DNA from: Elusimicrobiota bacterium
GTDB lineage: Bacteria; Elusimicrobiota; Elusimicrobia; Elusimicrobiales; UBA9959
Direction of reading: 5' to 3'
Assembly: GCA_027340875.1 (NCBI GenBank)
Contig: DAIENX010000007.1
Coordinates: 10,750 to 74,749 of the forward strand
DNA: 64,000 bases
Shown here: in pieces, positions 5,683 to 39,347 of the stretch
Position numbering within the stretch: the first letter of the stretch is position 1
Layout of the letters: every line of letters starts with the position of its first letter
Made by a program: the position numbers and the translations under genes
The notes under the pieces: generated by a model
Told to the model about the DNA's origin: nothing
Seen by the model: the letters and a program-made list of their open reading frames with translations, nothing else
The model's database searches: none

Positions 5683-5865
5683 TTTATCTCCTTGGGGCGG
5701 CCGGCGCCTGGCGGCGGCGCGGCGGCGTTACGCCCATATTCTATTCAATAGCCGCGGACCTTGTAAACTTGCCTTGCGCTTGCAGGCCCCGGGGAAAATA
5801 GATACAGTCTAGTTGCCCGCGGTCCGGGCCGGGAACTCCGTTCCCCCGCCGGGCCGCCTCCCGAT

Positions 5866-7365: not shown

Positions 7366-7372
7366 TCCGCTC

Positions 7373-16394: not shown

Positions 16395-16398
16395 AGTT

Positions 16399-17328: not shown

Positions 17329-17330
17329 AG

Positions 17331-23617: not shown

Positions 23618-24327
23618 ATGTTGTACTTCACGTAATTGGGCGCGCGGTCCTCGCGCACCCGGCTGTCCACGGCCCGCTGCTTCCGCGGCCTGGCCCCGTC
23701 CGGCCTGAGCGCGGCGTAGTCCACGTGCGTGTCCGTCTCGTTCTCCTTGAGGTCCCAGACCGCGCATTTCAGCCCGAGCGCCATCATCCCGGAGACGGTC
23801 TCCTTTATCCTGCCCTGGTTGGCCTTCAGGCGCAGCGTGTGCATCTCTATCCTAGTGCCGGGAAAGGACTTTATGTTCTTTATGGCCTTCAGCAGGGCCG
23901 CGTAGCTGCCTTTCTTCCTGGTCACGGCGTCGTGCACGGCCGCGTCCGGCCCGTAGACCGGCAGCAGGAAGGCGTTGACCCCGGCCGCGACCAGCGCGGC
24001 CGTCAGCCGGCGGCTGCGCAGCTTGACGCCGTTCGACATCAGCTCTATATAGGCGAAGCCTTCCTTCACTCCCATCCTGACCACGGACTCCAGCAGCCAC
24101 GCGGGGGCCATCGTGGGCTCGTCGCCGCCGAGGCAGAGCCGCCTGACTCCGCGCCGGCGGAGCACCCGCATCAGCGCGAGGAAGCGTATCAGCACCTCGC
24201 GCCACCGCTCCTCGGTGAAGGTGAAGGAGGTCTTGTGCGGGTGCCTGTTCCGCTGGCAGAAGACGCAGTCGATGTCGCAGCCGAACGGGAACGCCAGCAG
24301 CAGCTTGTCCTCCTTCCTGGCGTTCAT
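23596..24327 (-). CDS. Short radical SAM protein without a C-terminal Cys motif
   Basis: The ATG at 24327 makes an ATGA overlap with the upstream stop. MNARKEDKLLLAFPFGCDIDCVFC (CX3CX2C), LGGDEPTMAP, MSNG, PVYGPDAAVHDAVTRKKGSY. Size is 243 aa. Confidence 0.75.
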   Translation of the reverse strand: MNARKEDKLLLAFPFGCDIDCVFCQRNRHPHKTSFTFTEERWREVLIRFLALMRVLRRRGVRRLCLGGDEPTMAPAWLLESVVRMGVKEGFAYIELMSNGVKLRSRRLTAALVAAGVNAFLLPVYGPDAAVHDAVTRKKGSYAALLKAIKNIKSFPGTRIEMHTLRLKANQGRIKETVSGMMALGLKCAVWDLKENETDTHVDYAALRPDGARPRKQRAVDSRVREDRAPNYVKYNICTERTY

Positions 24328-25310
24328 GCGGCCTTCACCTCCGTTATGGGACGGAAGAAAGGGGCCTGCTCCGGGAAGGCCTCGAGATACTTCCGGAAGA
24401 TGCCTCCGCAGGAGCGCCGCAGCGCGCAGCGGCCGCAGGACTTCAGATAGACGCGCCGCCGCGTCGGGCGCAGCGAGACCGTCTCCTTCAGGCCGGCGCG
24501 CCCGCCGGGGAGCGCCGCCCTCTCCACGGTCAGCCGCGGCGAGTAGTAGAGGTCGTTGGAAAGGTCGTAATGACCGTTCAGCGAACAGGCCGGCGCGCCG
24601 AAGAAGCGCAGCGTCACGCCGAACAGCGCGGCCTGCTCCCGCAGGTCCCCTATGCGCCGGCCTATGGCGGTGAGGTCCGGAGCCAGCGAGGCGTAGTCCT
24701 CGCAGGCGCCGCCCTCCGGGGCCGGGTTGGAGATCATGTAATGCCGGACGAACCCAGAGCGGGAGACCAGGCGCAGGATGTCCGAGACCAGCTTGAAGTT
24801 CTTTTTGACGGCCACGGTGTTGACCATCAGGAACAGCCTGCCGCCGCCGGCCTTGCCCAGGTTGTCCAGCGCGGCCATGGCGTCGTCGAAGCTGCCCTTC
24901 CTGCCGGTCAGCGCGTCGTGTATCTTGGCCGTAGGTCCGTGGCAGGAGAGCATGGCCTCGTCCAGCAGCGGCGCGGTACGGCGGACGAAAGCGGGATCGG
25001 CGAAGGCGAGGCCGTTGGTGGTGACGCTGGTCCTGAACCCAAGCGCCCTGGCCGCACCGAGGGCGGCCGGCAGCGCGGCGCACAACGACGGCTCTCCTCC
25101 GGTGAAAGTGACGTGGGAGAAGCCGGCCCTGCGTTTCTCGCGCAGGATGCCTGCTATCTCCGACCCCGTCAGGTCCAGCGAGCCGAACCGGCGCAGCCTG
25201 TTCCGCTCGCTGCAGAACAGACAGCTGTTCTCGCAGGTGTAGGAAACGTGTATCTCCAGCCGCTCCACCGCGGCTTTCTTCGCTCCAGCGCCGTGTACCG
25301 TTCGGCTCAT
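24324..25310 (-). CDS. Radical SAM protein, CX2CX5CX3F family paralogue
   Basis: The ATG at 25310 makes an ATGA overlap with the upstream stop. HVSYTCENSCLFC, FTGGEPSLCAAL, TTNG, SCHGPTAKIHDALTGRKGSF. C-terminal CGRCALRRSCGGIFRKYLEAF. Confidence 0.85.
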   Translation of the reverse strand: MSRTVHGAGAKKAAVERLEIHVSYTCENSCLFCSERNRLRRFGSLDLTGSEIAGILREKRRAGFSHVTFTGGEPSLCAALPAALGAARALGFRTSVTTNGLAFADPAFVRRTAPLLDEAMLSCHGPTAKIHDALTGRKGSFDDAMAALDNLGKAGGGRLFLMVNTVAVKKNFKLVSDILRLVSRSGFVRHYMISNPAPEGGACEDYASLAPDLTAIGRRIGDLREQAALFGVTLRFFGAPACSLNGHYDLSNDLYYSPRLTVERAALPGGRAGLKETVSLRPTRRRVYLKSCGRCALRRSCGGIFRKYLEAFPEQAPFFRPITEVKAA

Positions 25311-26434
25311 GCGACGCACCTCCCGGAACGGACCGGCTTCAACGCCGAGAAACCCCTGGCCATCACGGTCCATATCCTGGCTCCGCGGCAGGCCGGGCCC
25401 AGCCGGCAGCGTCGGCAGGCGGAACCCTTCACGGTCAGCCTCTCCGCTATGAAGAACTCGGCCACCTTCATCAGGCCGGCCCTTGGCGTTATCTTTTTCA
25501 CGGCCCTCCGCTTCTCCGGCAGGCAGGCCGGCGCCGGGACCGTCTTAAGGGAACCTTCCGCCCGCAGCAGCTCGAGGTCCGAGCAGAACTGTGCCATCAC
25601 GCAGGACGCGCACCGCGCCCCCTTGCAGTGCATCTCCTCTCCGGCGTACAGGAAGGCCTCCAGCGGCCGGCGCATCCCCCGCACCTCGTCCATCAGCTTG
25701 CCGGGGTGCTGTATATACCGCTCGTTGCCCTCCAGCACTGCGGCGGGGAAGCGGTTCGTCCAGACGTGGGCGTTGACGGATTCGGAGAAGCGGAACACCT
25801 TTTCCAGCACCTTCCTCTTGGAAGCCGGGTCATAGGAAAGTTTCTTCCAGTTCTCCCACGCCCTGCCGAAAGGTATCAGGTTCAGCAGGTCGTACTCGTC
25901 CACGCCGAGGCGGTGCAGCAGGCCGACTATCTCGCGGACGGAGTCGGCGTTAAGCCTGTTCACCACGATGTCGCTGCTGACTATCAGGCCCGGCACCTTC
26001 TTGGCGTTGGCGATGGCCAGCAGGGTCTGCGCGAAAGCGCCGGGGACCCCGACCAGCGCGTCGTGCTGCCCGGAGGTGGCCCCGTGCACGGAGAACGTTA
26101 TCTCGGTGAGCCCGGCGGCCACAGCGCGCTTCAGAAAGCCATCGTAGCAGAACATCCGCCCGTTGCTGATGGCCTGCACGTGGGTATAGCCGAGCTTCCT
26201 CGCCTTCGCCACTATGGCCGTGAATTTGGGGTGTATCGTGGGCTCTCCGCCGCTCAGCACCACCCGGCGGCAGCCCTCCGCCCGGCCCCGCCTCAGGTCG
26301 GCCTCTATCTCTCCGAGCGGCAGATGTTCGCCGCAGATGGAGTCCGCGTCCAGACAGAAAAGGCAGCGGTTGTTGCAGGCCCTGGTCAGCCTGACCCATT
26401 TCCGCTTTTCCGGGGCGGCGGTTCTTTCCGTCAT
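25307..26434 (-). CDS. Radical SAM protein, CX2CX5C family paralogue with an additional CX4CX2CX5C motif
   Basis: The track ORF is 5'-extended. The ATG at 26434 lies 4 nt after the upstream TAG. LTRACNNRCLFC, LSGGEPTIHPKF, ISNG, SVHGATSGQHDALVGVPGAF. PFGRAWENWKKLS is shared with 18235-19122. Also CKGARCASCVMAQFC and CRRCRLGPAC. Confidence 0.85.
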   Translation of the reverse strand: MTERTAAPEKRKWVRLTRACNNRCLFCLDADSICGEHLPLGEIEADLRRGRAEGCRRVVLSGGEPTIHPKFTAIVAKARKLGYTHVQAISNGRMFCYDGFLKRAVAAGLTEITFSVHGATSGQHDALVGVPGAFAQTLLAIANAKKVPGLIVSSDIVVNRLNADSVREIVGLLHRLGVDEYDLLNLIPFGRAWENWKKLSYDPASKRKVLEKVFRFSESVNAHVWTNRFPAAVLEGNERYIQHPGKLMDEVRGMRRPLEAFLYAGEEMHCKGARCASCVMAQFCSDLELLRAEGSLKTVPAPACLPEKRRAVKKITPRAGLMKVAEFFIAERLTVKGSACRRCRLGPACRGARIWTVMARGFSALKPVRSGRCVA

Positions 26435-26438
26435 AGTT

Positions 26439-27386
26439 CTATCCAAGAAGTATCCTCTCTGCCAGCCTGTCCGCGGCCATCCCGCCGGCCACGGCCTTGG
26501 CCCCGAAAAGCTTCTTCGCCATGCCGGAGTAATCAGGACGGCGTCCGCTCCCGGCGCCCAGAGCCTCCAGCCCGCCGGCCAGCATCTGCGCGGCCTGGCC
26601 CGGGTCCCTCGCGGCAAGGACGAGGTTGGAGTGATAGCACCTGCCGTCAGTGTCCACCGTGGTCCCGGGATTGAAAAGCGGCACCGGGCCTTCGCGCGAG
26701 GCGTTCTCGATGACAACGGCCCCGGAATCGGCCAGTTCCCTGATATGCCTCAGCGCCCTGGCGAGCTTGGCGAGGGCGGCCGGCGTCCATTCCCGGTAAT
26801 AGGCCGGCAGGACGTTGACCCTGGGCGGTCGTCCGCGCGAAGCGGCTATCACGCGCTTCAGGACCCCGAGCGAAGAAAGCGGGTCGCGCTCGGGCAGCAG
26901 CAGGTTCCAGATCAGGTTGGGCAGGGCCGCGAACCTGCGGCTGACGCTCACCGAGGAGTTAATGTTCACCTGCACCCACGGCCGGGCCGAGAAATACCGG
27001 AGCTTCGCCGCGTCCAGCAGCAGGCCGTTCGTGCCCACCTCCGCGCGGCCGCGGTAGCCGGCCGCCTCCAGCATGCCTATGCCAGTCCTCACCAGCCCGA
27101 AGCGCAGCAGCGGCTCCCCGCCGAAAAACTTGACCGCGCCGCCCCCCAGGGCGGCGGAACAATACTGCTTTATAGCGCTTTTCAGGACCGCCGCGGGCAT
27201 GTCCGCCCGCCCGGTCGCGACGGGACATTCGGGGCACGCCGACTGGCAGCGCCGGGTGAGGATAAGGGTCAGCTGCGGGGCCGGCGCGCCCCCGCGGCAG
27301 GCCGGAAGGGCCGAGTTACTGGCCCTTCGCCGGTTCCTTTCCTTTGGTCTGCTTGCCCTGCGGCTGTACGCCCATCCTCTTGTCAT
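26439..27386 (-). CDS. Radical SAM-like protein (divergent, GGEPLL type)
   Basis: LILTRRCQSACPEC (CX3CX2C), FFGGEPLLRFG, GTNGLLLD. It lacks the CX2CX5C tail. The ATG at 27386 overlaps the upstream gene by 71 nt and I found no better start, so the start is uncertain. Confidence 0.65.
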   Translation of the reverse strand: MTRGWAYSRRASRPKERNRRRASNSALPACRGGAPAPQLTLILTRRCQSACPECPVATGRADMPAAVLKSAIKQYCSAALGGGAVKFFGGEPLLRFGLVRTGIGMLEAAGYRGRAEVGTNGLLLDAAKLRYFSARPWVQVNINSSVSVSRRFAALPNLIWNLLLPERDPLSSLGVLKRVIAASRGRPPRVNVLPAYYREWTPAALAKLARALRHIRELADSGAVVIENASREGPVPLFNPGTTVDTDGRCYHSNLVLAARDPGQAAQMLAGGLEALGAGSGRRPDYSGMAKKLFGAKAVAGGMAADRLAERILLG

Positions 27387-28365
27387 CTTCAGCCTTCTGC
27401 TTTACCATGTCGGCCATTATCTTGTGGCGGAACGAGCTCGTGCAGTAGCCGGTGGCGAGCTTCTTGGCCAAAGGTGCGCAAACCGACGGGTCCCTGGACT
27501 GCAGCACGTGGAGCAGCCATTTCTCGTCCGGGGTGGAATCCCCCCTCACCAGCGCGGCGCTGAGCTGGCATTCTTTCTTCCGCGGGCCGCTCAGTTTGCC
27601 GCAGGCCGCCCGCCCGTTGATGAACAGGAAGTTGGATTCGCAGTTGGGCGGCAGACCGAGCGAGCGGCACTCCGGGGTCCGCCTCTTCGCGATAGAGTCG
27701 GTAATGAACCGACAGAAGTCGGGGCTGGGACGCCCCCCCCTGAACGCGTTGTTAACGAACTTCTCGCATTTCCCGTCGTTCGTCTTCCTGTTCAGGGCCG
27801 AATACATGAAATCGTAGTAATCGGCGGCGAAACAGACCCTCTCCAGGTTCTGCTGGACGCAGTCGAGACGGCCACCGCTGATAAGCCGGCAGACGCCGTA
27901 GTCCAGGAAGAGATCGAGTATAGTCTCATCCTCGGGCATGTTGCTGTTGGTATTGAAGAAGAACCGGAAGTTCTTGTCGAAATGCCTGACGATAGCGTCC
28001 GGGTTGTCCGAGAAGGCCTTTATACAGTCGCTGTCGGCCGCGTTCACCGGGACGTCCTCTGGCTGGGAATAATACCCGCCGGAGGCGCTTTCGTACTGGC
28101 CGCTCTGGGGGATATTGCTCTGGGTATCGGTCGACGCCTGGCTGACCAGCGCGGCGGCGTCCGGAGGAAGCGCCTGGCCGACCTCCTGTTGCTGGGCCGC
28201 GGGGTAGGCCGGAGCCGCCGGCTGCTCGATGCCTATCTTCGCGGCGTTCCTGTCGGTGACCATCTTCAGGGCGAAAAGCACGCCCATCAGCGCCACCAGC
28301 AGGCCGATAAGCAGCTTCGGGGACATCGCCCCGGGTCTGTAGCCTTTCCTCATCGCGCTCACCAT
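27316..28365 (-). CDS. Membrane-anchored or exported Cys-rich protein, paralogous to the C-terminal domain of 7373-8779
   Basis: N-terminal helix LLIGLLVALMGVLFAL, then a low-complexity linker, then about 230 aa with about 13 Cys. MPEDETILDLFLDYGVCRLISGGRLDC aligns with MPEQHLWDALAEYGVCVSLSKGSLEGC. DPSVCAPLAKKL aligns with PEACAPLSEKI. ATG 28353 is an alternative start. Confidence 0.7.
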   Translation of the reverse strand: MVSAMRKGYRPGAMSPKLLIGLLVALMGVLFALKMVTDRNAAKIGIEQPAAPAYPAAQQQEVGQALPPDAAALVSQASTDTQSNIPQSGQYESASGGYYSQPEDVPVNAADSDCIKAFSDNPDAIVRHFDKNFRFFFNTNSNMPEDETILDLFLDYGVCRLISGGRLDCVQQNLERVCFAADYYDFMYSALNRKTNDGKCEKFVNNAFRGGRPSPDFCRFITDSIAKRRTPECRSLGLPPNCESNFLFINGRAACGKLSGPRKKECQLSAALVRGDSTPDEKWLLHVLQSRDPSVCAPLAKKLATGYCTSSFRHKIMADMVKQKAEDDKRMGVQPQGKQTKGKEPAKGQ

Positions 28366-28655
28366 TGCCCGTGGCTGCCGTGCGAACCGTGCGAACCGTG
28401 CGAGCCGTGGCTGCTGTGCGAACCGTGCGAACCGTGCGAGGCGTGACTCACGTGGCCCGACGCGTTGCCGCTGCTGTGGAAGTAGTTTGCATGCGCTAGC
28501 GCGTCAGCGTGCTCTGTCACCACTCCGACGGCGGTGGCTACCAGTCCGAGGACGACCGCGGCCTTGACCACGTCGCTCTTGACTATCTTGCCCTCCTCGC
28601 TCGAAAGGAAGCGGGAAAGGTCTACCGACAGTTTCTTTTTCTGTTTTCCGGCCAT
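28359..28655 (-). CDS. Small membrane-anchored His-Xaa-Ser repeat protein (HxsA-like candidate rSAM substrate)
   Basis: Size is 98 aa, with a basic N-terminus and one hydrophobic helix (AAVVLGLVATAVGVV). The C-terminus holds nine consecutive H-x-S triplets: HVS HAS HGS HGS HSS HGS HGS HGS HGS, then HGQW. It lies 19 nt downstream of an rSAM/SPASM gene. Confidence 0.7.
   Translation of the reverse strand: MAGKQKKKLSVDLSRFLSSEEGKIVKSDVVKAAVVLGLVATAVGVVTEHADALAHANYFHSSGNASGHVSHASHGSHGSHSSHGSHGSHGSHGSHGQW
28369..28449 (-). repeat. Coding tandem repeat, 9-nt period nested in a 36-nt duplication, encoding (S-H-G)n
   Basis: The plus strand reads ccgtggctg ccgtgcgaa ccgtgcgaa ccgtgcgag, then a repeat of the same 36 nt with one mismatch (28369-28404 versus 28405-28440), then one degenerate unit. 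Confidence 0.9.
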
Positions 28656-28674
28656 ATTTCGCCCCGTTCTCGGT

Positions 28675-30144
28675 CTATACGTGTATCCCGGCCGCTCCGG
28701 CGCTGCTGCCGGCCCAGGATTCGAACAGCTTCCTAACCTTCGGCTCGCGCAGCCGCGCGAACAGGTAGTCCATCACTCCGGTGTAGATCTCGCACCGGAA
28801 GTTGGGATGATGCATGTACAGGTCGTTGTGCTCCGAATAGTTGAAGACCGGGCATACGCCGCAGTAGGGCTTGTAGACGCAGGAGGAGCAGAGCGTCTGT
28901 ATGTCCGTGACCGACGCGGTGACCACGCATTTCACCACTGAGCTCGACGCCAGGTCCGCGTAGGTCTCCTTCTTCAGGTCGCCCATGCAGAACGAATCGG
29001 TCCCCTCCGCCGCCAGCATGCGCCCCTCGTCGCAGGTGAAGACGCGGCCGTCGTAGTCGTAGGCGATCTGGCCTATCCCCGCCCCGCAGGGGGACCGGAG
29101 GTCCATGAAGTTCGGGTCGGTGCCGGTCAGGATCTTCCTCAGGAATATCCTGGCCGTGTGCTCGACCAGGGAGGCCTTCTTCTTCAGGTTCAGCTCTATG
29201 ATGTAGTCCAGCGCCTTCGTGTAGAACTCTATGTACTCCCGCGCCGTGTAGCCTATCCCAGGCCAGGCCTTCTTCGCCGCGCCGAACGGATTGAGGAAGC
29301 GCAGGAAGATGGAGCGGGCGCCGATGCGGACGTATTCGTCCACTATGTCCTTGTGGCGCCCCAGGGACTGCTGCGTCACCGTGAGCAGGGCGTCCGGCCC
29401 GTTCTTGGTCCTGGCCGTGCGCTTCTTGATGGTCTTCCACCACTTCACGACCTGGGCGTGGCTGCTGCCGCCGGTGGCCACCCGGTTCTTGTCGTGCAGG
29501 TCGGCGGGACCGTCCAGCGAGGTGCAGATGGCGACGTTGTGCTTGAGCAGGAAGTTCAGCCTCTCTCCGGTCATGGCCGACAGGTTGGTGACCAGGCTCA
29601 GGCTCACCTTCTTATCGAAGGTCTTCGTGCGGGCGGCGGCCTCGTTGACCACGAACTCCAGCACGGGCCAGTTGAGCAGCGGCTCCCCGCCCTGGAACTC
29701 TATGGTGATGTTGTCGGCCGGGGAAGCGAAGATGGCGTCCAGCACCCTGGAGGCCGTCTCCCTGTTCATGTCCAGGCCGCGGCCGCTCCTCTTGGACGAG
29801 GCGTGGCAATACACGCAGTCGTGGTTGCAGCGCCGCGTCAGCACGGCTATGTGCAGCGCCGGGCCGGAGAAGAGGAAATGGTTCTTCTCGAGCCACCTCT
29901 CGGCCAGGCCGGAAAAGTCCATGTAGTCGCGGACGAGGCCCTTGCGGGAGAGGTCCTTGTACTCAGCCGAGTCCTTGTCCAGCTTGCCGGCCGCCAGCCG
30001 CGAGAAGACATCGCCGGAGATGAAGGCGTGCTCGCCTATGTCGTTGGTGACCAGGTATTCGTCGCCCCACTTCTTGTAGCGCAGAAAACCGGTCTTCTTC
30101 GGGTCGAAGTCAATTCTTTCTTTTTGCTTTTCTGGCCTTCGCAT
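28675..30144 (-). CDS. Radical SAM/SPASM peptide-maturase-like protein (HxsB-like)
   Basis: LTRRCNHDCVYCHAS (CX3CX2C), FQGGEPLL, VTNLS, SLDGPADLHDKNR. SPASM-type cysteines are present (RSPCGAGIGQIAYDYDGRVFTCDEG, then CSSCVYKPYCGVCPVFNY). An N-terminal extension of about 105 aa precedes the core. Confidence 0.9.
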   Translation of the reverse strand: MRRPEKQKERIDFDPKKTGFLRYKKWGDEYLVTNDIGEHAFISGDVFSRLAAGKLDKDSAEYKDLSRKGLVRDYMDFSGLAERWLEKNHFLFSGPALHIAVLTRRCNHDCVYCHASSKRSGRGLDMNRETASRVLDAIFASPADNITIEFQGGEPLLNWPVLEFVVNEAAARTKTFDKKVSLSLVTNLSAMTGERLNFLLKHNVAICTSLDGPADLHDKNRVATGGSSHAQVVKWWKTIKKRTARTKNGPDALLTVTQQSLGRHKDIVDEYVRIGARSIFLRFLNPFGAAKKAWPGIGYTAREYIEFYTKALDYIIELNLKKKASLVEHTARIFLRKILTGTDPNFMDLRSPCGAGIGQIAYDYDGRVFTCDEGRMLAAEGTDSFCMGDLKKETYADLASSSVVKCVVTASVTDIQTLCSSCVYKPYCGVCPVFNYSEHNDLYMHHPNFRCEIYTGVMDYLFARLREPKVRKLFESWAGSSAGAAGIHV

Positions 30145-30571
30145 TTTTGTTTTCTTCCCACGGTATGGCTATTCCCAGAGCATCGGTCTTGTAGTCGCCG
30201 CTCTCCGCCTCTTTCAGCAGCTTCTCGATCTCCTTCTCCAGCTCCGCGTCCAGCACCGGGGCGGCGGCCGCCGGTTCCGCGGGTCTGGGCTGCGCGGAAA
30301 GAAGGGCCCTGACCACTATCCTCTCGCGCAGGGCCTGGTTCACGGCCGAGACCTTGAGGCGGAAAGCGTGGTGCAGCAGTTCGTTGCGGAACTCGCCCTC
30401 CAGGTCGCGGCCCGCCGGGAACTTGCCGTTCTTGGACTCCAGCACGGCCGAGAGAGCGCCGCCCTTGTCCTTGCCCAGCTTCACGTACGCGGCCTTGGAG
30501 AACGTGTATGCCGCGGCATAGACGCACTCGATAGGGTAAACGGAAAGATCTATCTTCACCTGTATTTTCAT
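30110..30571 (-). CDS. Small hypothetical protein, possible HxsD-like accessory protein
   Basis: Size is 153 aa. GAGGA SD lies 5 nt upstream of ATG 30571. The 3' end overlaps the start of the rSAM/SPASM gene by 35 nt. ELLHHAFRLKV is loosely reminiscent of the LLNDYxLRE signature I recall for HxsD. The C-terminus is acidic then basic. Confidence 0.55.
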   Translation of the reverse strand: MKIQVKIDLSVYPIECVYAAAYTFSKAAYVKLGKDKGGALSAVLESKNGKFPAGRDLEGEFRNELLHHAFRLKVSAVNQALRERIVVRALLSAQPRPAEPAAAAPVLDAELEKEIEKLLKEAESGDYKTDALGIAIPWEENKNAKARKAKRKN

Positions 30572-30590
30572 GCTGATCCTCTAACGCAGT

Positions 30591-31154
30591 TTATCTCAAC
30601 CTGCAGCAAAGCATTTCGCCAGTAGCCTGTATACCGCCGGGAGGGCCCATCTGGTACATCTGGTTGCCGACGCGGGCGGCCACTACGGCGGTCTTGGCGC
30701 CGAGACACATCGTGACGACGCCGTAAGAATAGCTCTGCCAGGAACAGTCCAGCGGGACCGTCGGGTCGGACCAGCGGGCCAGGCCGTTGCCGTCCGAGGT
30801 AAGCAGCCGGCCGTTGGCCTGCGTGCCGTCCTGCAGCTCGAAGCTGCCGACCACGTGGAGTTTTGCGGCCGGGGAAGGGGTGCCTATTCCAACATTGCCG
30901 CCGTCCCTGGCCAGCAGGGTCTGGCTGGTGGTAAGTATGCTGACGTAGCCGCCGTAGGGGGCAGGGTAATAAGTGGTCAGCGTAAGCGTCTCGGAGCCGA
31001 TGAAGCCCGGATGCCAGCAGATGAACATGAGGGCCATCAGCGCCACCACCGTCTTCCGGTGCGTCCTGCCGAGCCTGTCCAGCCAGGCAGGCAGGCCGGG
31101 CTGGTGAAGCCAGTCCAGCGAGAACCTTATAACGATATCGCGGTTATTTTTCAT
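30591..31154 (-). CDS. Membrane-anchored surface protein with a tail-fibre-like YYP-x-P-x-G-x-Y / GNVGIGT motif
   Basis: Start taken at ATG 31154 (MKNNRDIV). Hydrophobic helix VVALMALMFICW. TLTTYYPAPYGGYVSILTT, then GGNVGIGTPSPAAKLHVVG, a pattern common in phage tail-fibre and endosialidase-chaperone-like proteins. The tail is Cys-containing. This is the first gene after the promoter and leader. Confidence 0.6.
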   Translation of the reverse strand: MKNNRDIVIRFSLDWLHQPGLPAWLDRLGRTHRKTVVALMALMFICWHPGFIGSETLTLTTYYPAPYGGYVSILTTSQTLLARDGGNVGIGTPSPAAKLHVVGSFELQDGTQANGRLLTSDGNGLARWSDPTVPLDCSWQSYSYGVVTMCLGAKTAVVAARVGNQMYQMGPPGGIQATGEMLCCRLR

Positions 31155-31340
31155 AGTCGCCGCCCCCGATAAGCGCGAAAAGCACATCCTTGCGCAACGG
31201 CCCCTACGGTCGGGACGCGTTGCATATCACACGGACCGCCACGGGCTTGCTCCCATGGCACTCACCGATCCGGATTTCGTTCGCGCGCCTACGCGCATGC
31301 TAGCCATCCGCCGGCTTACGCCGGCGATACTTCGACTATA
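31155..31340 (-). promoter_or_regulatory. Long structured 5' leader (candidate cis-regulatory RNA) of the 24-kb gene train
   Basis: About 185 nt lie between the predicted -10 and ATG 31154. Minus-strand hairpins include CGCCGGC-GUAA-GCCGGCG (a GNRA loop), UGCGCG-UAGG-CGCGCG, GCCAUGGG-AGCAAG-CCCGUGGC, and a 12-bp bulged helix UGCAACGCGUCCC...GGGGCCGUUGCG. I could not recognise a known riboswitch class. Confidence 0.3.
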
Positions 31341-31346
31341 TTATTA

Positions 31347-31375
31347 ATTATAGCAGAAATCTTTCCGATTTTCAA
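31347..31375 (-). promoter_or_regulatory. Near-consensus sigma70 promoter for the long minus-strand operon
   Basis: The minus strand reads TTGAAA (31375-31370), a 17-nt spacer, then TATAAT (31352-31347). It sits in an AT-rich island inside otherwise GC-rich DNA. Confidence 0.6.
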
Positions 31376-31505: not shown

Positions 31506-32984
31506 TCAGCTGCCGGCCTTTATCCCTCTCGACCTGACGAACTTGTCGAGGTCGAACTTCTCGAAGGGCTGGTAATTCTTCTGCCGCCAGGGCTTGTTGG
31601 TGATGAAGCTCCAGCCCATCTTGATGAACATGTTGAGGTAGGTCCTATGGAGCGGCTTCTTCGAGAAGAAATAGTTCCCGAGGAACTTCCTGTTCACGAT
31701 AAGTGCCTTCCCGATCCATTTTTTATAGTACTTGTCGGCCTCCCCGACCGACATATCCGCGGTCCTGGTTATCGCGTTGAGCCAGTTGAACTGCGAGAAA
31801 TCCGTCACCTCTATCGCGCCCATCTTCTTGCATTCGTCGTAATAGGGGGTGCCCGGCAGCGGCGTGGTGAAATCCGGGCCCACGATGTCGCAGTTCTCGA
31901 TCAGGAAGTCGAGGGTATTGTGCAGGTCCTCCTTGGTATCCCACGGACTGCCCCACATCAGCATTCCCATGATTATGAAATTGTGCTTCTGGGCTATCTT
32001 TATGGCCTTGTTTATCACCTCGAGGGTCTGCGGCTTCTGCAGCCTTTGCAGTTCGCTGGGCTTCGAGGTCTCTATCCCCAGCATGATCTGATACACGCCT
32101 ATCTCGTTGAGGTCCTTCATCAGGCTCTCGTTCCTGATCACGTTGAAGCAGGTCGTCTGTATCCACATCAGGACGCCCAGCTTCCTGGCCCGCATGAGCT
32201 TTATGAACTCCCGGGTGCGGTCCTGGTCGTGGAGGAAGTCGTTGTCCCCGACGTAGAAGACCTTTTTGCCGTATTTCTTGCTCAGCAGCTCGAGCACGTC
32301 CACCATGTACTTCGCCCCGTGCCCGCGCCAGGAATGCTGCCAGTGTATGGCCTCGCTGCAGAACCTGCAGTGCCCCACGCAGCCCCTCGCGAAATTCACG
32401 GTGAAGCCGACCTTGCCGCCGAACGGGGCCAGGCCGTACCTCTCCATCGGGAACAGGTCGAAGGCGGGCATCGGGAGCTCGTCCAGGTCCTTTATCATCG
32501 GCCGAGGGGCGTTCTTTACGGCCTCTCCGTCCTTGAGCCAGGCCAGGCCTTTTATCCCCGAAAGGTCTCTCTCCTTCTTCTCCACGGCCCGGAGCAGCTC
32601 CATCAGCGTGACCTCTCCCTCGCCCGTGACGATGTAATCGAACAGCCCGCTTTCAAGGGCGTCCTTCCACATGTAGGAGCCCATATAGCCGCCGGTCACT
32701 ATCTTGGCGCCGGGCAGCACCTTTCTCGCTATCTTCGCGGCGTTCACCGTATCCTGCCAGAAAGCCGTTACCGACCCGGTTATGGCCACGACGTCCGGCC
32801 GCTCATTATCGAGCGTCTCCGCCGTTCTGTCCCATGGCTTATCGGGCGCGACGGCGGCGTCGAAGACCTTCGTTTCGAACTCTTTCCTGGCTACCGCGGC
32901 GAGGTATATGAGCGACGGCGAGGCCGTCACGCCCCTGAAAAATTCCCAGTATTGGTGGAGCGGTTCAAGAAAAAGGACTTTCAT
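31506..32984 (-). CDS. B12-binding-domain radical SAM protein (class B rSAM)
   Basis: The N-terminal cobalamin-binding-like Rossmann region has DVVAITGSVTAF and KIVTGGY. rSAM motif FARGCVGHCRFCSE. Size is 492 aa. It is visibly less GC-rich than the upstream cluster. GGGAGA SD precedes ATG 32984. Confidence 0.9.
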   Translation of the reverse strand: MKVLFLEPLHQYWEFFRGVTASPSLIYLAAVARKEFETKVFDAAVAPDKPWDRTAETLDNERPDVVAITGSVTAFWQDTVNAAKIARKVLPGAKIVTGGYMGSYMWKDALESGLFDYIVTGEGEVTLMELLRAVEKKERDLSGIKGLAWLKDGEAVKNAPRPMIKDLDELPMPAFDLFPMERYGLAPFGGKVGFTVNFARGCVGHCRFCSEAIHWQHSWRGHGAKYMVDVLELLSKKYGKKVFYVGDNDFLHDQDRTREFIKLMRARKLGVLMWIQTTCFNVIRNESLMKDLNEIGVYQIMLGIETSKPSELQRLQKPQTLEVINKAIKIAQKHNFIIMGMLMWGSPWDTKEDLHNTLDFLIENCDIVGPDFTTPLPGTPYYDECKKMGAIEVTDFSQFNWLNAITRTADMSVGEADKYYKKWIGKALIVNRKFLGNYFFSKKPLHRTYLNMFIKMGWSFITNKPWRQKNYQPFEKFDLDKFVRSRGIKAGS

Positions 32985-33176: not shown

Positions 33177-33205
33177 TTGACAGCCGCCGGGTTTCGTCTT
33201 ATAAT
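33177..33205 (+). promoter_or_regulatory. Consensus sigma70 promoter for the small-ORF / rSAM-SPASM operon
   Basis: TTGACA (33177-33182), a 17-nt spacer, then TATAAT (33200-33205). Both hexamers match consensus perfectly. Confidence 0.65.
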
Positions 33206-33232
33206 CGGATTATACGGGTGACAGGAGGAAAG

Positions 33233-33343
33233 ATGCCTGCGATCGCTAAATCTCCGGTAAAACCGGCTAAAAAACTGAACAAAACGCTGAAAGCGGACAA
33301 GAAACTGTCGCGGTACTGCCGTTCCGGCAGGGTTCTCTGGTAA
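33233..33343 (+). CDS. Unannotated 36-codon Lys-rich ORF, a candidate RiPP precursor peptide
   Basis: My manual translation is MPAIAKSPVKPAKKLNKTLKADKKLSRYCRSGRVLW, then TAA. AGGAGG lies 4 nt upstream of ATG 33233, about 28 nt downstream of the consensus -10. It is followed by a hairpin and then the rSAM/SPASM gene. It is too short for the ORF track. Lys codons are mostly AAA, which is atypical for this genome. Confidence 0.4.
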   Translation: MPAIAKSPVKPAKKLNKTLKADKKLSRYCRSGRVLW

Positions 33344-33362
33344 ACCGGTCCGATAACGCGAC

Positions 33363-33396
33363 GAAGTCCCCGTAACCGCGGGGACTTCTCGTTTCC
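33363..33396 (+). terminator. Intercistronic hairpin (attenuator or partial terminator) between the small ORF and the rSAM/SPASM gene
   Basis: Perfect 10-bp stem: GAAGTCCCCG (33363-33372), loop TAACCG, CGGGGACTTC (33379-33388). It is followed by TCGTTTCC, a weak T tract. Confidence 0.5.
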
Positions 33397-33419
33397 AGCG
33401 GACCGTCAAACGGAGAAAG

Positions 33420-34907
33420 ATGGCACAAAAACCGGCATTCCTCTTCGAGAAACTCGGGCGCCGCATCGGCGTCTCTACCGGCACCGGCGATTTCTACGAG
33501 CTGTCCCCTGCCGTCTACAAGGCCCTTAAGAAGTGGAATAGCGCGATCGAAGAAAAGGGCGGAAAACTCTCGACCGCGGCGGCGGAAAAGCTGGCCCGCG
33601 GCTTTTCGGTCCCGGCGGAGATCTCCGCTCTGTTCCCGCTGCGCGCCGCCAGGTCCGGGCCTCCCGACATCCGCGCCCGCCTGACCGACCTGACGCTGAA
33701 CATAACCTCCGACTGCAACCTGCGCTGCGTCTACTGCTGGAACGATACCGGGAAATATTCGAACGGTTCGTTCAAGAAGGCGAAGAGCGCCCGTCCGGAA
33801 GCCGCGGCCTGCCCTCCCCCGATGTCCGTGGAAACGGCCTGCCGGGCCGTGGACCTGCTGGTCAAGATGAGCCGCGGGGAAAAACAGCTGGTCGTGGATT
33901 TTTACGGCGGGGAGCCTCTTAAGAACCTGCCCACGCTCCTGGGCGCGGTCGCCTACTGCAAGGCCCTGGGAAAGAAAACGAACATCCGGTTCCATTTCCT
34001 GCTGGCCACCAACGGGACCCTGCTGACCCCGGCGCTGGCCGAGAAGCTGCTGGGACTGGGGGTACAGATAGCGGTAAGCGTGGACGGCCCCAGGAAGCTG
34101 CACGACCGGAACAGGCCCTTTCACGACGGGAAAGGCAGCTTCGCCGCGATAGCGCGAAACCTGCGGAACATGCGTCCGGAGACGAGACGCAGGCTGGTCG
34201 GGAGGACGACCGTCACCCCTTACTACACGGACATGGTCGCGCTTTACCGCAACCTAAAGGACCTGGGGTTCGAGCGCGTGGAGATCTTCGAGAGCGAGGA
34301 CGCGTGCCACAAGATAACCCCGGGGAGGGAAGCCGTTTTCTTCCACAAGGAAAAGGACTTCCGCAGGATCCTCGGGGAGTACGATCTGCTGGCCGGGAAA
34401 TATTCGGACGAGGCCGTAAAGGGCGTCCTGGATTACGGAAAGACCTTCTTCAACAGGTTCTTCAAGCTGATGCAGAGGCTTTATTACAACCAGCAGGTCA
34501 CCGGCGGGTGCCCGGCGGCCCAGGGCCAGATAGCGGTGTCGTCCGACGGCGAGATCTTCCCCTGCACCTCGTTCATAGGGATAAAGGCCTTCTCCCTCGG
34601 GAACGTGCACTCCGGGCTGGACCGCAAAAAACATCTCTCGCTGCTGCGGAAAACCGCCGGAAGGTTCAGGAGGTGCGCCGGCTGCGAGATCTTCAGCGTC
34701 TGCGGGACCACCGGGTCCTGCCTGAACATCAACCATTATTTCAACGGGGACGTATCCAGGCCTCATGCCAGGAGTTGCAGGCTGTTCACGGAAAAGATAA
34801 AGCTGGCCATGGCCGTGCTCGCCGACCTTTCGGAAAGGATGCCGGACAGGCTGGAGGCTCTTTTCGGCCACGATCCCGTAGGACGTAGAGGGAACGAACT
34901 CTATTGA
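33420..34907 (+). CDS. Radical SAM/SPASM domain peptide-maturase-like protein
   Basis: LNITSDCNLRCVYCWND (CX3CX2C), FYGGEPLKN, ATNGTLL, SVDGPRKLHDRNR. SPASM cysteines are present (GGCPAAQGQIAVSSDGEIFPCTSF, then CAGCEIFSVCGTTGSCLN). An N-terminal extension of about 95 aa may be an RRE-like peptide-binding domain. GGAG SD is present. Confidence 0.9.
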   Translation: MAQKPAFLFEKLGRRIGVSTGTGDFYELSPAVYKALKKWNSAIEEKGGKLSTAAAEKLARGFSVPAEISALFPLRAARSGPPDIRARLTDLTLNITSDCNLRCVYCWNDTGKYSNGSFKKAKSARPEAAACPPPMSVETACRAVDLLVKMSRGEKQLVVDFYGGEPLKNLPTLLGAVAYCKALGKKTNIRFHFLLATNGTLLTPALAEKLLGLGVQIAVSVDGPRKLHDRNRPFHDGKGSFAAIARNLRNMRPETRRRLVGRTTVTPYYTDMVALYRNLKDLGFERVEIFESEDACHKITPGREAVFFHKEKDFRRILGEYDLLAGKYSDEAVKGVLDYGKTFFNRFFKLMQRLYYNQQVTGGCPAAQGQIAVSSDGEIFPCTSFIGIKAFSLGNVHSGLDRKKHLSLLRKTAGRFRRCAGCEIFSVCGTTGSCLNINHYFNGDVSRPHARSCRLFTEKIKLAMAVLADLSERMPDRLEALFGHDPVGRRGNELY

Positions 34908-36668: not shown

Positions 36669-37055
36669 TCAGAGCAGCACTACCAGCAGGGTCGCGCCGA
36701 ACTTTTCCTTCAAAAAGGCCCGCGCCTCCTCCGCGATGTCCCTGAAATCCTCCAGGTCGGCGGGAGAGGCGGAGAGGAAAGAGGCCGGGTCCCGGACCGC
36801 CAGCACGTAACCCTTCGCCGGGACCTCGTTCGGGAGCGAACGCAGGCAGTCCAGCAGGGCGTCCCAGTTCCCGCCGAAATAGGCCGGGAACCTGAACGCC
36901 GACGAGACCGCGGCCAGCAGCCCGGCCTTGTCCCTGGCCGCAGATCCGTCTATGAAGGCCGTAAAATAATCCGGAGGAGGGAACCTTTTCAGGACCTCCT
37001 CCTCCGAAGCGGACCCCTTGAGGTCCAGGAACAGCCCGCCGGCGCCCGGGGGCAT
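36669..37055 (-). CDS. Barstar-family ribonuclease inhibitor
   Basis: FRFPAYFGGNWDALLDCL is the hallmark barstar motif. Size is 128 aa. It starts 5 nt downstream of the RNase gene. Confidence 0.85.
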   Translation of the reverse strand: MPPGAGGLFLDLKGSASEEEVLKRFPPPDYFTAFIDGSAARDKAGLLAAVSSAFRFPAYFGGNWDALLDCLRSLPNEVPAKGYVLAVRDPASFLSASPADLEDFRDIAEEARAFLKEKFGATLLVVLL

Positions 37056-37060
37056 GCGGC

Positions 37061-37621
37061 TCAGTAGACCACCGTCAGCAGGATAAAGTTCTTGTAGTGG
37101 TCGGGGGTGTAGTAGATCTTCTCGCCGCCGCCTATTATCACCCGCTCCGAGCCGCGGGCGCTGAGGTCGGGGGCCACCTGGTAGGTGGTGCCGCCTATGG
37201 TCACCGTGTGCGGCGCGTTGCCGGTCAGAAGCGTGTACTCGTGGTAGTAGCCCTTGGGCTGCTGCGGCAGGCGTCCTTCCTTGTTGGAGAAGATCGCGCC
37301 GTCCTGGGAATACGGGAGATGGTTCCCGTTGTAGATGTCGGAGATCAGCTTCATCAGCGCCTTGATGCGGGCGCCGTCCTGGATGGCGGGGCTGAAGTCG
37401 CGGCCGGGAGCGGGCGCGCCGGCCGAGGCGCGCGTTTCCGCAGCGGGAGCGGCCATCGGAACGATAATCTCATTCGGGGAGGGGATCGCGTCCAGGCCCT
37501 GCAGCACCACCGCGCCGGACAGGTCGCCCAGCGCTGTCGCGCCTGGGCGCTCGGCGAAGACCCGTGGCGAAACCGCGAGCAGGGAAAGTATTACGGCGGT
37601 CTGAAACCATCTTTTAAGCAT
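37061..37621 (-). CDS. Secreted guanyl-specific ribonuclease (barnase / RNase Sa / N1-T1 family)
   Basis: Start taken at ATG 37621 (MLKRWFQTAVILSLLAVSPRVFA, a signal peptide). Catalytic-core motifs are GYYHEYT, RGSERVI and YYTPDHY. Confidence 0.85.
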   Translation of the reverse strand: MLKRWFQTAVILSLLAVSPRVFAERPGATALGDLSGAVVLQGLDAIPSPNEIIVPMAAPAAETRASAGAPAPGRDFSPAIQDGARIKALMKLISDIYNGNHLPYSQDGAIFSNKEGRLPQQPKGYYHEYTLLTGNAPHTVTIGGTTYQVAPDLSARGSERVIIGGGEKIYYTPDHYKNFILLTVVY

Positions 37622-37756
37622 GTTCTTTTTCCTTGTGTTGTAATGGCGCCGATCGCGCTCGCGTTCCGGCATTACCGCAGTTATATTTTAGTATATAACG
37701 TTTTTCTGCCTAGGGCCCTAGGACCCAGACCCGCCTAGGCCCAAAGACCCAGAGAA

Positions 37757-37808: not shown

Positions 37809-39113
37809 TTACAGCAGCTCGGCCACGAGCGCCGCCAGCGAGCTGCGCTCGGTCTTCGTGAACGTCAGGTGGCCGTACATTTTCTGGCCCTTCATGCGGT
37901 CCACGATATAGGTCAGGCCGTTGGACGCTATGTCCAGGTACGGATTGTCTATCTGGTACGGATCGCCTGTCACCACGACCTTGGTGCCCTCCCCGGCGCG
38001 CGAAAGTATCGTCTTGATCTCGTGCGGCGTCAGGTTCTGCGCGTCGTCCACTATCATGTACTGCTTCGGCAGCGAGCGGCCGCGGATATGCGTGACGGAG
38101 GCTATCTCTATCTTCTCGTTCTGCAGCAGGTATTCGAACTTCTCCAGCGCGCTCTCCTGGTGGCGCTTGTCCATCACGAACTCGAGGTTGTCGTAGATAG
38201 CCCCCATCCACGTAGAGAGCTTCTCCTCCTTGGTGCCGGGGATGAAGCCGATGTCCTTTCCGACCGGGACTATCGGACGGCAGATGATCAGCTTGCGGTA
38301 GACGTTCTCTTCCACCGACTTCTGCAAACCGCAGACCAGCGTGCAGAGGGTCTTGCCCGTGCCGGCGGAACCGAGCAACGTGACCAGCTTGACCGAGTCG
38401 TCGAGCAGCAGCTCCATCGCGCAGCGCTGCTCCTTGTTGAGCGGGCGGATGCCCCACGGCGAGGGCTCCGGGTTCAGCGCCCGGATCTTCGACGGGTCGG
38501 CCGGGTCCACGCGGCCGAGCGCCGACTTCTTCTGGTCGTCCTTGGCGTGGATCACGACGAATTCATTGGGGGACAGCTCGCTGTCCTTCGGGCTGTCGAT
38601 CACGTGGTCCTTGTAGAACTTGTCCACCGACGGCGCGGGGACCTGCAGCGTGACCAGCCCTGGGTAAAGCTCGTCCACCTTCACCTTGCCGGACTCGTAG
38701 TCCTGCGACACCAGCCCGACGGCCTCGGCCTTCAGGCGCAGGTTGATGTCCTTGGTCACCAGTATCGCGGTGTGCTTCTTCTGGCCGTACCAGTAGGCGG
38801 TGTTCAGGATGCGGTTGTCCATCTCCGTCAGCTTGAACTCCTTGGGCAGCACCTGAACGTGGTCCAGGTCCACCACCAGCGTGCCGCCGTTCTCCATCTT
38901 GACGCCGGCGTTCAGCTTGCCTTTCAGGCGGTATTCGTCGAGCTTGCGCGAGACTATGCGCGCGCTCTTGCCGCGCTCGTCGGCCGCGTGTTTGAAGGTG
39001 TCCAGTTCCTCTATGACGGAGATCGGTATGACCACCGTATTATCCTCGAATTTGGTGAACGACAGCGGGTCGTGGATAAGCACGTTCGTGTCGAGGATGA
39101 ATACTTTTTTCAT
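37809..39113 (-). CDS. PhoH2-type protein: N-terminal PIN domain fused to a PhoH-like ATPase
   Basis: The track ORF is 5'-extended. The ATG at 39113 is preceded by GGAGGA. PIN motif KVFILDTNVLIHDP. PhoH Walker A GSAGTGKT and Walker B-like MIVDDAQN. Confidence 0.9.
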   Translation of the reverse strand: MKKVFILDTNVLIHDPLSFTKFEDNTVVIPISVIEELDTFKHAADERGKSARIVSRKLDEYRLKGKLNAGVKMENGGTLVVDLDHVQVLPKEFKLTEMDNRILNTAYWYGQKKHTAILVTKDINLRLKAEAVGLVSQDYESGKVKVDELYPGLVTLQVPAPSVDKFYKDHVIDSPKDSELSPNEFVVIHAKDDQKKSALGRVDPADPSKIRALNPEPSPWGIRPLNKEQRCAMELLLDDSVKLVTLLGSAGTGKTLCTLVCGLQKSVEENVYRKLIICRPIVPVGKDIGFIPGTKEEKLSTWMGAIYDNLEFVMDKRHQESALEKFEYLLQNEKIEIASVTHIRGRSLPKQYMIVDDAQNLTPHEIKTILSRAGEGTKVVVTGDPYQIDNPYLDIASNGLTYIVDRMKGQKMYGHLTFTKTERSSLAALVAELL

Positions 39114-39347
39114 TGGTTCCTCCGTTTCCGGTCCGGCCGGCGGAAGCCGGGGCTCAAGCCCCGGAAGACCGCAACTTTTCCGCCCCCCGGTCCGTAATTG
39201 TGATAGCAGGATATCGGGCCCCGCTAATTCTAGCATAAATCCCGCGAAAGCGGTTTTATGAGCGGGCGCTAAAATAGTAAGATATCGATATCCACCGCCA
39301 CCGCCCTACGGGGCGGCGGCGTCGTTCATCTGGCAACAAGGACAAAG

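Follow-up and report, generated by a model that had tools for sequence, protein, structure and literature searches.

The 64,000-nucleotide stretch analyzed here, hereafter the window, stems from an Elusimicrobiota bacterium of the UBA9959 lineage (assembly GCA_027340875.1, contig DAIENX010000007.1, positions 10,750 to 74,749 of the forward strand). It contains an unannotated open reading frame (ORF) of 36 codons, followed on the same strand by the gene for a 495-residue radical S-adenosylmethionine (rSAM) enzyme with a SPASM domain (Table 1). A first-pass annotation, made from the sequence alone, had read the two as a candidate locus for a peptide made by the ribosome and modified after translation (RiPP), with the small ORF encoding the precursor and the enzyme acting as its maturase. 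Based on the linkage and conservation described below, we are highly confident that the two genes form a genuine peptide-maturase pair.

The small ORF is preceded by a sigma-70-type promoter and a Shine-Dalgarno sequence, both as first described. The promoter is the only perfect TTGACA-17-TATAAT match in the window, where 0.00 are expected from 100 dinucleotide-preserving shuffles; its -35 box TTGACA, a TATAnT-like -10 box and the GGAG of the ribosome-binding site are kept at equal spacing in three related Elusimicrobia loci (L001-L003). Translation from the ATG yields the peptide MPAIAKSPVKPAKKLNKTLKADKKLSRYCRSGRVLW, exactly as quoted in the first-pass annotation. An alternative in-frame GTG at 33218 would extend it to 41 residues, but the orthologs begin at the ATG instead. 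The codon usage of the ORF, which had already been called atypical, is indeed unusual: seven of its eight Lys codons are AAA, compared with 15% AAA in the neighboring genes (P ~1e-5), and its GC content at third codon positions is 0.61 versus 0.88 in these genes, the maturase being normal at 0.82. Possible causes are translation-rate tuning, low mRNA structure or a foreign origin. Three assemblies that carry an identical maturase lack the small ORF among their gene calls, and the few called copies in a large protein collection are labeled ‘hypothetical protein’. Only one other site in the window comes within one mismatch of the promoter consensus, a TTGAAA-17-TATAAT sequence with an extended TG element on the opposite strand, which stands upstream of a 198-residue ORF and of HxsD-like and HxsB genes.

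Linkage of the two genes was assessed from either side. Starting from the maturase, 77 loci were fetched from one-genome-per-species contigs and their flanks were translated. The maturase homologs share 72-81% identity in Elusimicrobiota, ~52-60% in many Omnitrophota and 37-42% in a second clade (clade 2). In ~47 of 50 genome loci, the orthologous maturase has next to it a small ORF with the C-terminal sequence [YF]C(R/G)(S/C)(G/S)RVLW; given enough flanking sequence, this ORF is present throughout except in one locus that has none at all (L008), the other cases of a missing peptide being three loci that end at a contig end. The pairing holds across maturases that are only 36-81% identical. 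In five loci (L006, L007, L014, L016 and L035), the peptide gene lies immediately downstream of the maturase gene on the opposite strand, so that the two are convergent. Starting from the peptide, metagenome contigs of the Joint Genome Institute were scanned with a back-translated CRSGRVLW-stop pattern, which gave 66 matches. Of these, 52 are lysine-rich peptides of the family, while the other parsed ones are unrelated ORFs that matched by chance. Fifty of the 52 adjoin a maturase, 49 of them upstream on the same strand and one convergently, and for the remaining two the contig breaks off within ~140-215 nt on the side that should hold the maturase; among the 52 metagenome peptides, none is an orphan without a maturase.

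Peptide core and maturase clade vary together. The C-terminal sequence is LSRYCRSGRVLW in the peptides of clade 1, one of which has RF for RY, and (A/R)FCRCGRVLW or FCGCSRVLW in those of clade 2; it is RTR[FY]CRSGRVLW in the outliers L048 and L050. One genome locus (L011) contains two maturases, one from either clade, and the matching peptide type stands in front of each. The metagenome variants MLRRINARPRTGKRLSRFCRSGRVLW (L108:728-808) and MLRRINVSGLRRKRLSRFCRSGRVLW (L116:2890-2970), which adjoin maturases 42-48% identical to that of the window, belong to this family as an arginine-rich lineage of intermediate position. The family boundary was set at the outgroup maturases L051-L054, L060 and L068 (~30% identity), which have no RVLW peptide. 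Beside one of these, the 30% identical homolog in a deltaproteobacterial metagenome-assembled genome (L060), two unrelated Cys-containing peptides with acidic leaders flank the maturase homolog (7303-7404 and 5727-5927), one of them ending in ...GFCCSGIYLPFRS; they look like a separate rSAM peptide family. Overall, ~50 of 185,579 species genomes scanned carry the pair, a number that depends on the exact patterns used. The carriers are dozens of uncultivated Elusimicrobiota and Omnitrophota genomes and a few genomes from other lineages.

On the DNA level, the small ORF evolves as a protein-coding gene. The last nine codons differ among 38 distinct clade-1 DNA versions by synonymous changes only, including switches between CGN and AGR for Arg, between TCN and AGC for Ser, and between CTN and TTR for Leu. 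The two preceding codons show just two kinds of replacement, Tyr by Phe and Ser by Thr, each of them in two versions. Synonymous-only variation of the core marks a translated gene under strong purifying selection. The first-pass annotation had made its reading depend on a conserved small ORF with just such a bias upstream of orthologous maturases; it is found in the genome loci and in the metagenomes alike.

The anatomy of the peptide was derived from column statistics over 48 sequences, counting the C-terminal Trp as position -1. The Cys at -8 and the Arg-Val-Leu-Trp at -4 to -1 are invariant, the Arg at -7 and the Gly at -5 occur in 47 peptides each, and the residue before the Cys is aromatic (Tyr or Phe) in every case. 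Further upstream, a [VLI]-N-[KR] motif occupies positions -22/-21/-20 in 42-44 of the 48 peptides and is shared by the two clades. Peptides of 27 residues are the most frequent; minimal peptides of 26-27 residues begin just before this motif, and longer ones, of up to 53 residues, carry additional lysine-rich, low-complexity sequence at their N-terminus. The peptides are strongly basic, with 38% Lys and Arg and 0.5% Asp and Glu, and contain one Cys in clade 1 and two in clade 2. Pfam and NCBIfam models, searched with the peptide and four variants at E-values up to 10, returned nothing meaningful, only noise from low-complexity sequence (histone-H1-like, CP12 and zf-CDGSH). A peptide profile run against 1.84 billion representatives found only four clusters, all of stand-alone peptides, so larger proteins do not contain the motif as a domain. 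A resemblance to the ribosomal protein bL36 (C-x-x-C...GRV) was considered and dropped, as it has no Pfam support.

Table 1. Features of the peptide-maturase locus, followed by neighboring features, in window coordinates.
Feature	Position	Strand	Basis or remark
Sigma-70-type promoter: TTGACA (33177-33182), 17-nt spacer, TATAAT (33200-33205)	33177-33205	+	12/12 consensus match
Shine-Dalgarno sequence AGGAGG	33223-33228	+	Read from sequence; 4 nt 5' of ATG at 33233; GGAG kept in L001-L003
Precursor peptide gene, 36 aa	33233-33343 including stop (TAA, 33341-33343)	+	ORF and orthologs beside maturase
Proposed recognition motif of the peptide	Residues L15-N16-K17
Invariant core of the peptide (L-S-R-Y-C-R-S-G-R-V-L-W), with Cys29	Residues L25-W36
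Intercistronic hairpin	33363-33388	+	10 Watson-Crick pairs and one G-U, 4-nt loop, weak U tail
Maturase ribosome-binding site GGAG	33412-33415	+	Read from sequence
rSAM/SPASM peptide maturase, 495 aa	33420-34907	+	PF04055, 54 bits (cut-off 29.5)
Predicted RRE-like domain of the maturase, aa 1-70	33420-33629	+	AlphaFold2, pLDDT 84-96
C-terminal tail of the maturase, residues ~480-495	34857-34907	+	FGxDPVGRRGNxLY
B12-binding radical SAM protein, 492 aa, divergent	31506-32984	-	PF02310 and PF04055
Near-consensus promoter TTGAAA-17-TATAAT, extended TG	31347-31375	-	11/12 consensus match
Nitrogenase-like/Hxs radical SAM gene array	14236-31187	-	Long co-directional array
NifD/K- or BchN/B-like protein	19119-20408	-
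738-aa protein	20389-22605	-	N-terminal ~260 residues NifH/CfbC-like
HxsC-like radical SAM proteins (three)	22598-23767; 24324-25373; 25307-26716	-
Weak rSAM protein	26439-27386	-
HxsB	28675-30144	-	489 bits, above cut-off
HxsD-like protein	30110-30571	-
Membrane-anchored protein (predicted), 198 aa	30591-31187	-	No Pfam or NCBIfam match
Barstar inhibitor	36669-37055	-	Precomputed Pfam match
Barnase-like ribonuclease	37061-37672	-	Precomputed Pfam match
PIN-PhoH protein	37809-39236	-	Precomputed Pfam match

The enzyme downstream of the small ORF is, as had been described, an rSAM/SPASM protein. The CX3CX2C motif (C99/C103/C106) is invariant in 93 sequences. Seven SPASM cysteines (C364, C382, C419, C422, C428, C434 and C453) are invariant too and align to those of CteB, the maturase of the thermocellin precursor CteA, a SCIFF ranthipeptide of Clostridium thermocellum (PDB 5WGG/5WHY). 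The Pfam SPASM model scores 18.5 bits versus a cut-off of 21.5, and the cysteines are spaced as CX2CX5CX5C, not as CX2CX5CX3C. With 93 homologs as input, AlphaFold2 gave a model with a mean predicted local distance difference test (pLDDT) score of 90 and a predicted template modeling score of 0.90. In a Foldseek search with this model, CteB ranks first, with template modeling (TM) scores of 0.71/0.83 over ~480 columns of 495, followed by anSME and ChlB; SuiB, the streptide enzyme, lies far below at 0.44-0.48. CteB is also the best match in a sequence search of the PDB (E 1.8e-36). The N-terminal extension, for which the first-pass annotation had suggested a RiPP recognition element (RRE), is conserved among the maturase homologs, comprises ~85-90 residues and is modeled as a β3-α3 unit, with strands at residues 6-11, 14-19 and 25-27 and helices at 30-45, 52-61 and 66-69; together with the whole-length match to CteB, the model supports this suggestion. 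At the other end of the protein, the tail is near-invariant, with the motif listed in Table 1, and is modeled with low confidence (pLDDT 66-76); the tail of clade-2 maturases differs and reads ...EYYAARGKR.

Among curated NCBIfam families, the maturase scores highest with PapB (NF047865; 215.1 bits, cut-off 340), followed by the Nif11-type maturases (196 bits, cut-off 519), QhpD (188 bits, cut-off 453), the SCIFF maturase (TIGR03974; 171.2 bits, cut-off 425), the ScfB-related family (161 bits, cut-off 855) and CcpM (153 bits, cut-off 500). These six best families are all Cys-directed maturases, and the characterized enzymes among the best-scoring families form thioethers from cysteine (PMC10114670). 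Matches to families that form cyclophanes, YhhB, FxsB and GrrM, are weak (83, 70 and 45 bits), and the 25 best-scoring families include neither the MftC nor the PqqE model.

The maturase thus has the RRE-rSAM-SPASM architecture, closest to CteB: it combines the CX3CX2C motif and barrel, a seven-cysteine SPASM domain and, as modeled, an N-terminal RRE fold, and in both systems a small precursor gene adjoins the enzyme gene. The differences are nevertheless considerable, as the two enzymes are just 22-24% identical and CteA carries six Cys in ~45 residues as well as a Thr acceptor, whereas the window peptide has a single Cys (two in clade 2), a polylysine N-terminus and a core without Thr, Asp, Glu or Asn. 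With 171 bits against the 425 of the SCIFF model, and with a precursor that has fewer than six Cys, the pair lies outside the SCIFF system. PapB with its substrate PapA (freyrasin) and NxxcB (Nif11-type) represent the highest-scoring curated families, yet the maturase misses their cut-offs, the residue at +4 from the Cys is Arg instead of Asp or Glu, and the peptide has a single motif instead of repeats; the ranthipeptide core of Cys plus Asp, Glu, Asn or Thr is absent. The third-best family, QhpD, likewise belongs to the rSAM/SPASM enzymes. Its substrate for cross-linking is QhpC, a small polypeptide with Cys residues and the gamma subunit of quinohemoprotein amine dehydrogenase, which is retained inside the cell as a functional component instead of being exported as an antibiotic (PMC10114670). 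Unlike the Qhp system, the window has no dehydrogenase subunits or QhpG nearby, and the peptides are 26-53 residues long with a single Cys.

Other systems resemble the pair in its precursor rather than in its enzyme. Mycofactocin (MftA/MftB/MftC) and pyrroloquinoline quinone (PQQ; PqqA/PqqD/PqqE) likewise derive from a very short precursor with an invariant C-terminal or core motif, which is modified by an rSAM/SPASM enzyme and conserved across phyla. In the system described here, however, the RRE is fused to the enzyme and companion peptidase or pathway genes are not conserved, so that the invariant short precursor is the only trait in common with these pathways. The streptide-type RaS-RiPPs and WprB, which makes a Trp-Arg link (PMC11851443), are comparable in that the core of the window peptide has an invariant Arg and Trp three residues apart, between which such a link is chemically conceivable. 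Their enzymes are distant, as the TM score of SuiB indicates. Moreover, streptide-type systems are quorum-sensing-regulated and come with exporter and protease genes, none of which is present here. In terms of RiPP biosynthesis in general, the conserved, co-located precursor under protein-level selection is in place, and a protease or exporter in the cluster, which is typical but not obligatory, is absent. The pair is therefore of the rSAM/SPASM RiPP type by architecture and logic, yet outside every curated family tested. We found no paper or curated model describing it; literature searches on SPASM proteins and RiPPs in Omnitrophota and Elusimicrobiota brought up surveys only, and those with the core sequence of the peptide gave unrelated matches only.

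The first-pass annotation had also described a perfect 10-bp hairpin with a weak T tract between the two genes and had seen in the order of precursor, leaky terminator and maturase the classic layout for rSAM-modified peptides. The hairpin is there, with the arm GAAGTCCCCG (33363-33372) paired to CGGGGACTTC (33379-33388) and an outer helix extending the stem. The 76-nt spacer between the peptide and maturase genes has a minimum free energy of -39 kcal/mol (z = -4.6), and the sequence of the stem is identical in L001-L003. Its tail TCGTTTCC, however, is too U-poor to satisfy the U-run rule for terminators, and across the family only 15 of 39 such spacers are significantly structured (z below -2), namely those of the window and of L001-L003, which make up the four Elusimicrobia loci, of all clade-2 loci and of a few others; some loci have spacers of just 19-36 nt. 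Accordingly, precursor and maturase stand, whereas a family-wide rho-independent terminator or attenuator with a U run does not. The hairpin is a lineage-specific expression device that lies outside the definition of the family, and its description as a ‘leaky terminator’ or transcription attenuator is an interpretation.

In many genomes, the pair is set among unrelated housekeeping genes, and no gene but that of the peptide is consistently linked to the maturase. In the window, no transporter or protease gene lies within ~6 kb of the pair, in line with the first-pass annotation, which saw none next to the small ORF. The sole neighbor family that recurs across unrelated loci is a B12-binding radical SAM protein. 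The divergent 492-residue representative in the window, possibly an accessory tailoring enzyme, although this is uncertain, has orthologs of 66-67% identity that adjoin the pair in L002 and L003, and is ~30% identical to a second group of ~520 residues. Members of the latter directly follow the maturase in ~12 Omnitrophota genome loci (e.g. L013:7503-9062, L046:4136-5701, L005:7711-9276 and ~9 further loci) and at least five metagenome loci. They are 74-87% identical between loci whose maturases, from both clades, share 38-60%, and are thus far more conserved than the maturase itself. Both types score best against BchE, HpnJ and ApyD-type models, always below the cut-off. We rejected the B12-binding protein as an obligate partner, since no more than about a third of the loci have it as a direct neighbor and it falls into two non-orthologous groups. 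In some Omnitrophota loci, U32-family proteins (L046:6637-7824, L030:9148-11434, L023:11408-12580) and PMT_2 (GT-C) glycosyltransferases (L013:11697-13241, L046:761-2377) occur a few genes downstream, alongside paralogs of the B12-binding protein. The U32 family, which includes O2-independent hydroxylases, is found in about three loci only.

On balance, it is probable that the 36-codon ORF encodes the substrate peptide of the adjacent RRE-rSAM-SPASM enzyme and that this peptide is cross-linked in its core. One strong promoter would transcribe both genes, and in the Elusimicrobia lineage the hairpin probably yields more peptide message than enzyme message. The conservation of the [VLI]-N-[KR] motif suggests that the RRE domain binds the basic leader there, and the Asn of this motif, at -21 and thereby at a fixed distance from the C-terminal Trp, may position the core in the active site. 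The invariant tail would then enter the active site, where 5'-deoxyadenosyl radical chemistry would generate an intramolecular cross-link; its placement within the C-terminal core appears quite likely. The best candidate product would be a thioether between the invariant Cys and a carbon of the invariant downstream Arg, Val, Leu or Trp, giving a short polycationic peptide that is closed into a small macrocycle at its C-terminus. A link from the Cys to the Arg at +4 (C-R-S-G-R) would parallel the register of PapB, which joins Cys to the residue four positions downstream (CX3D). Since no protease or exporter is conserved, the product may act at full length or need unlinked functions. Thioether formation is a tentative assignment, falling slightly short of an even chance, to which both the sequence relationships and the structural model point: QhpD, NxxcB and PapB make non-alpha thioethers (PMC10114670), and CteB combines an RRE with an auxiliary cluster whose open site binds a peptidyl cysteine (PMC8172795).

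Several observations weigh against this explanation or parts of it. The core lacks the residues that serve as acceptors in characterized ranthipeptides, and in clade 1 it offers only one Cys. RiPP precursors usually show the opposite of the arrangement seen here, in which the core is invariant and the N-terminus is variable and of low complexity, and neither a leader peptidase nor an ABC transporter is conserved with the pair across loci. The maturase reaches no NCBIfam cut-off, relatedness among SPASM sequences is a poor predictor of chemistry, and clade-1 maturases share an eighth cysteine, C296 (in EDACH), that clade 2 does not conserve. Finally, the hairpin is missing from most loci, including most of those in Omnitrophota. 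A precursor-maturase pair is thus supported, whereas a ‘secreted RiPP natural product’ is not established, as a conserved protease or exporter is lacking.

Two alternatives would deny the small ORF the role of a substrate. It could be a cis-regulatory upstream ORF, i.e. a leader peptide or attenuator of the maturase gene, as might be read from its position directly upstream, the stable hairpin in between and the strong skew of its Lys codons toward AAA. This is very improbable, since the convergent downstream peptide genes in six loci (five from genomes and one from a metagenome) exclude a cis-acting element, make the linkage independent of any cis arrangement and effectively refute the idea; besides, most loci have no hairpin, and last eight residues that are invariant and covary with the enzyme clade are unlike an attenuator. 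That the region might instead be a conserved non-coding RNA, an alternative already raised in the first-pass annotation, or a chance ORF, could be argued from the shortness of the ORF, its atypical codon usage and a single sub-threshold, RsmY-like match in a permissive Rfam scan (18.7 bits versus a gathering threshold of 57), which we judge to be due to chance. Rfam gave no match at gathering thresholds, the peptide is conserved among genomes whose DNA is otherwise unalignable, and the synonymous-only substitutions in the core refute both an RNA and a chance ORF, leaving this reading with a negligible probability.

The other two alternatives accept the pair and concern its product. The enzyme could join two of the invariant side chains by a carbon-carbon (or C-N/C-O) bond, such as Arg33-Trp36 in R-V-L-W or Tyr28-Arg30 in an aromatic-X-Arg three-residue cyclophane, with the Cys being a cluster ligand or a bystander. 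The invariance of Arg(-4) and Trp(-1) and the aromatic residue that always precedes the Cys are compatible with this, as are the weak YhhB, FxsB and GrrM matches and the missing thioether acceptors, and rSAM-dependent Trp-Arg (WprB; PMC11851443), Lys-Trp and Arg-Tyr cross-links are known (reviewed in PMC10114670). However, the scores of families that make thioethers are two to four times higher (150-215 bits), the model resembles CteB (TM 0.71) far more than SuiB, and invariance of the Cys in all 48 peptides is not expected of a bystander residue, so that we consider such chemistry unlikely. It is similarly doubtful whether the product stays inside the cell, either as a peptide-derived cofactor or as a modified basic micro-protein binding nucleic acid, the ribosome or a membrane, which in many genomes would be further tailored by the B12-binding radical SAM enzyme. 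In favor of this, the core stays the same from phylum to phylum, even where the maturase has diverged to 36% identity, the pair often lies among housekeeping genes without a conserved exporter or leader protease, the ~520-residue B12-binding protein directly follows the maturase in both clades, and the peptide is highly basic. PqqA and MftA are likewise invariant short precursors. On the other hand, the small number of carrier genomes looks accessory, with the dependence of that scan on exact patterns as a caveat, no cofactor-pathway peptidase or oxidase is conserved, the mycofactocin and PQQ maturase models lie outside the 25 best-scoring families, and most loci have no B12-binding radical SAM gene nearby. 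There is a small chance that the product is neither an antibiotic nor a signal but a novel cofactor, for redox or metal chemistry, or else a polycationic micro-protein that is cross-linked, with a link new to SPASM enzymes; examples would be a bond from the Cys sulfur to an Arg, Val, Leu or Trp carbon, or a tryptathionine-like Cys-Trp bond. An intracellular molecule of this kind would explain why the last eight residues are invariant despite the divergence of the enzyme, and why exporter and protease are absent.

Upstream of the pair, the window contains a long array of co-directional genes on the opposite strand, a nitrogenase-like/Hxs radical SAM cluster (Table 1). It resembles the cluster of a ‘novel nitrogenase paralog plus many radical SAM genes’ reported from groundwater Elusimicrobia (bioRxiv 10.1101/765248). 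The 198-residue protein, the first of the HxsD/HxsB operon, occupies a position where the Hxs substrate HxsA might be expected but has no His-Xaa-Ser repeats. The idea that the peptide-maturase pair belongs to this cluster was discarded, as no homolog of a cluster ORF lies within 6 kb of the pair in any of the fetched loci. On the other side of the pair, genes for a barnase-like ribonuclease, a barstar inhibitor and a PIN-PhoH protein are found.

To conclude, the window represents a previously unnamed peptide-maturase family of uncultivated Elusimicrobiota, Omnitrophota and a few other lineages, whose precursor is mostly missed by gene callers because it is only 26-36 codons long. Cues that are visible in the raw sequence, such as the promoter, the Shine-Dalgarno sequence and the hairpin, can locate real unannotated micro-genes of this kind. 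With two genes, a predicted minimal substrate of 27 residues, a single invariant Cys and an invariant tail of eight residues, the family is tractable, and given that its core is devoid of the known ranthipeptide acceptors, a solved product would likely add a new cross-link to the SPASM repertoire. Furthermore, the combination of an invariant core with the absence of export machinery invites the question whether some rSAM-tailored peptides might serve as cellular components and not as secondary metabolites.

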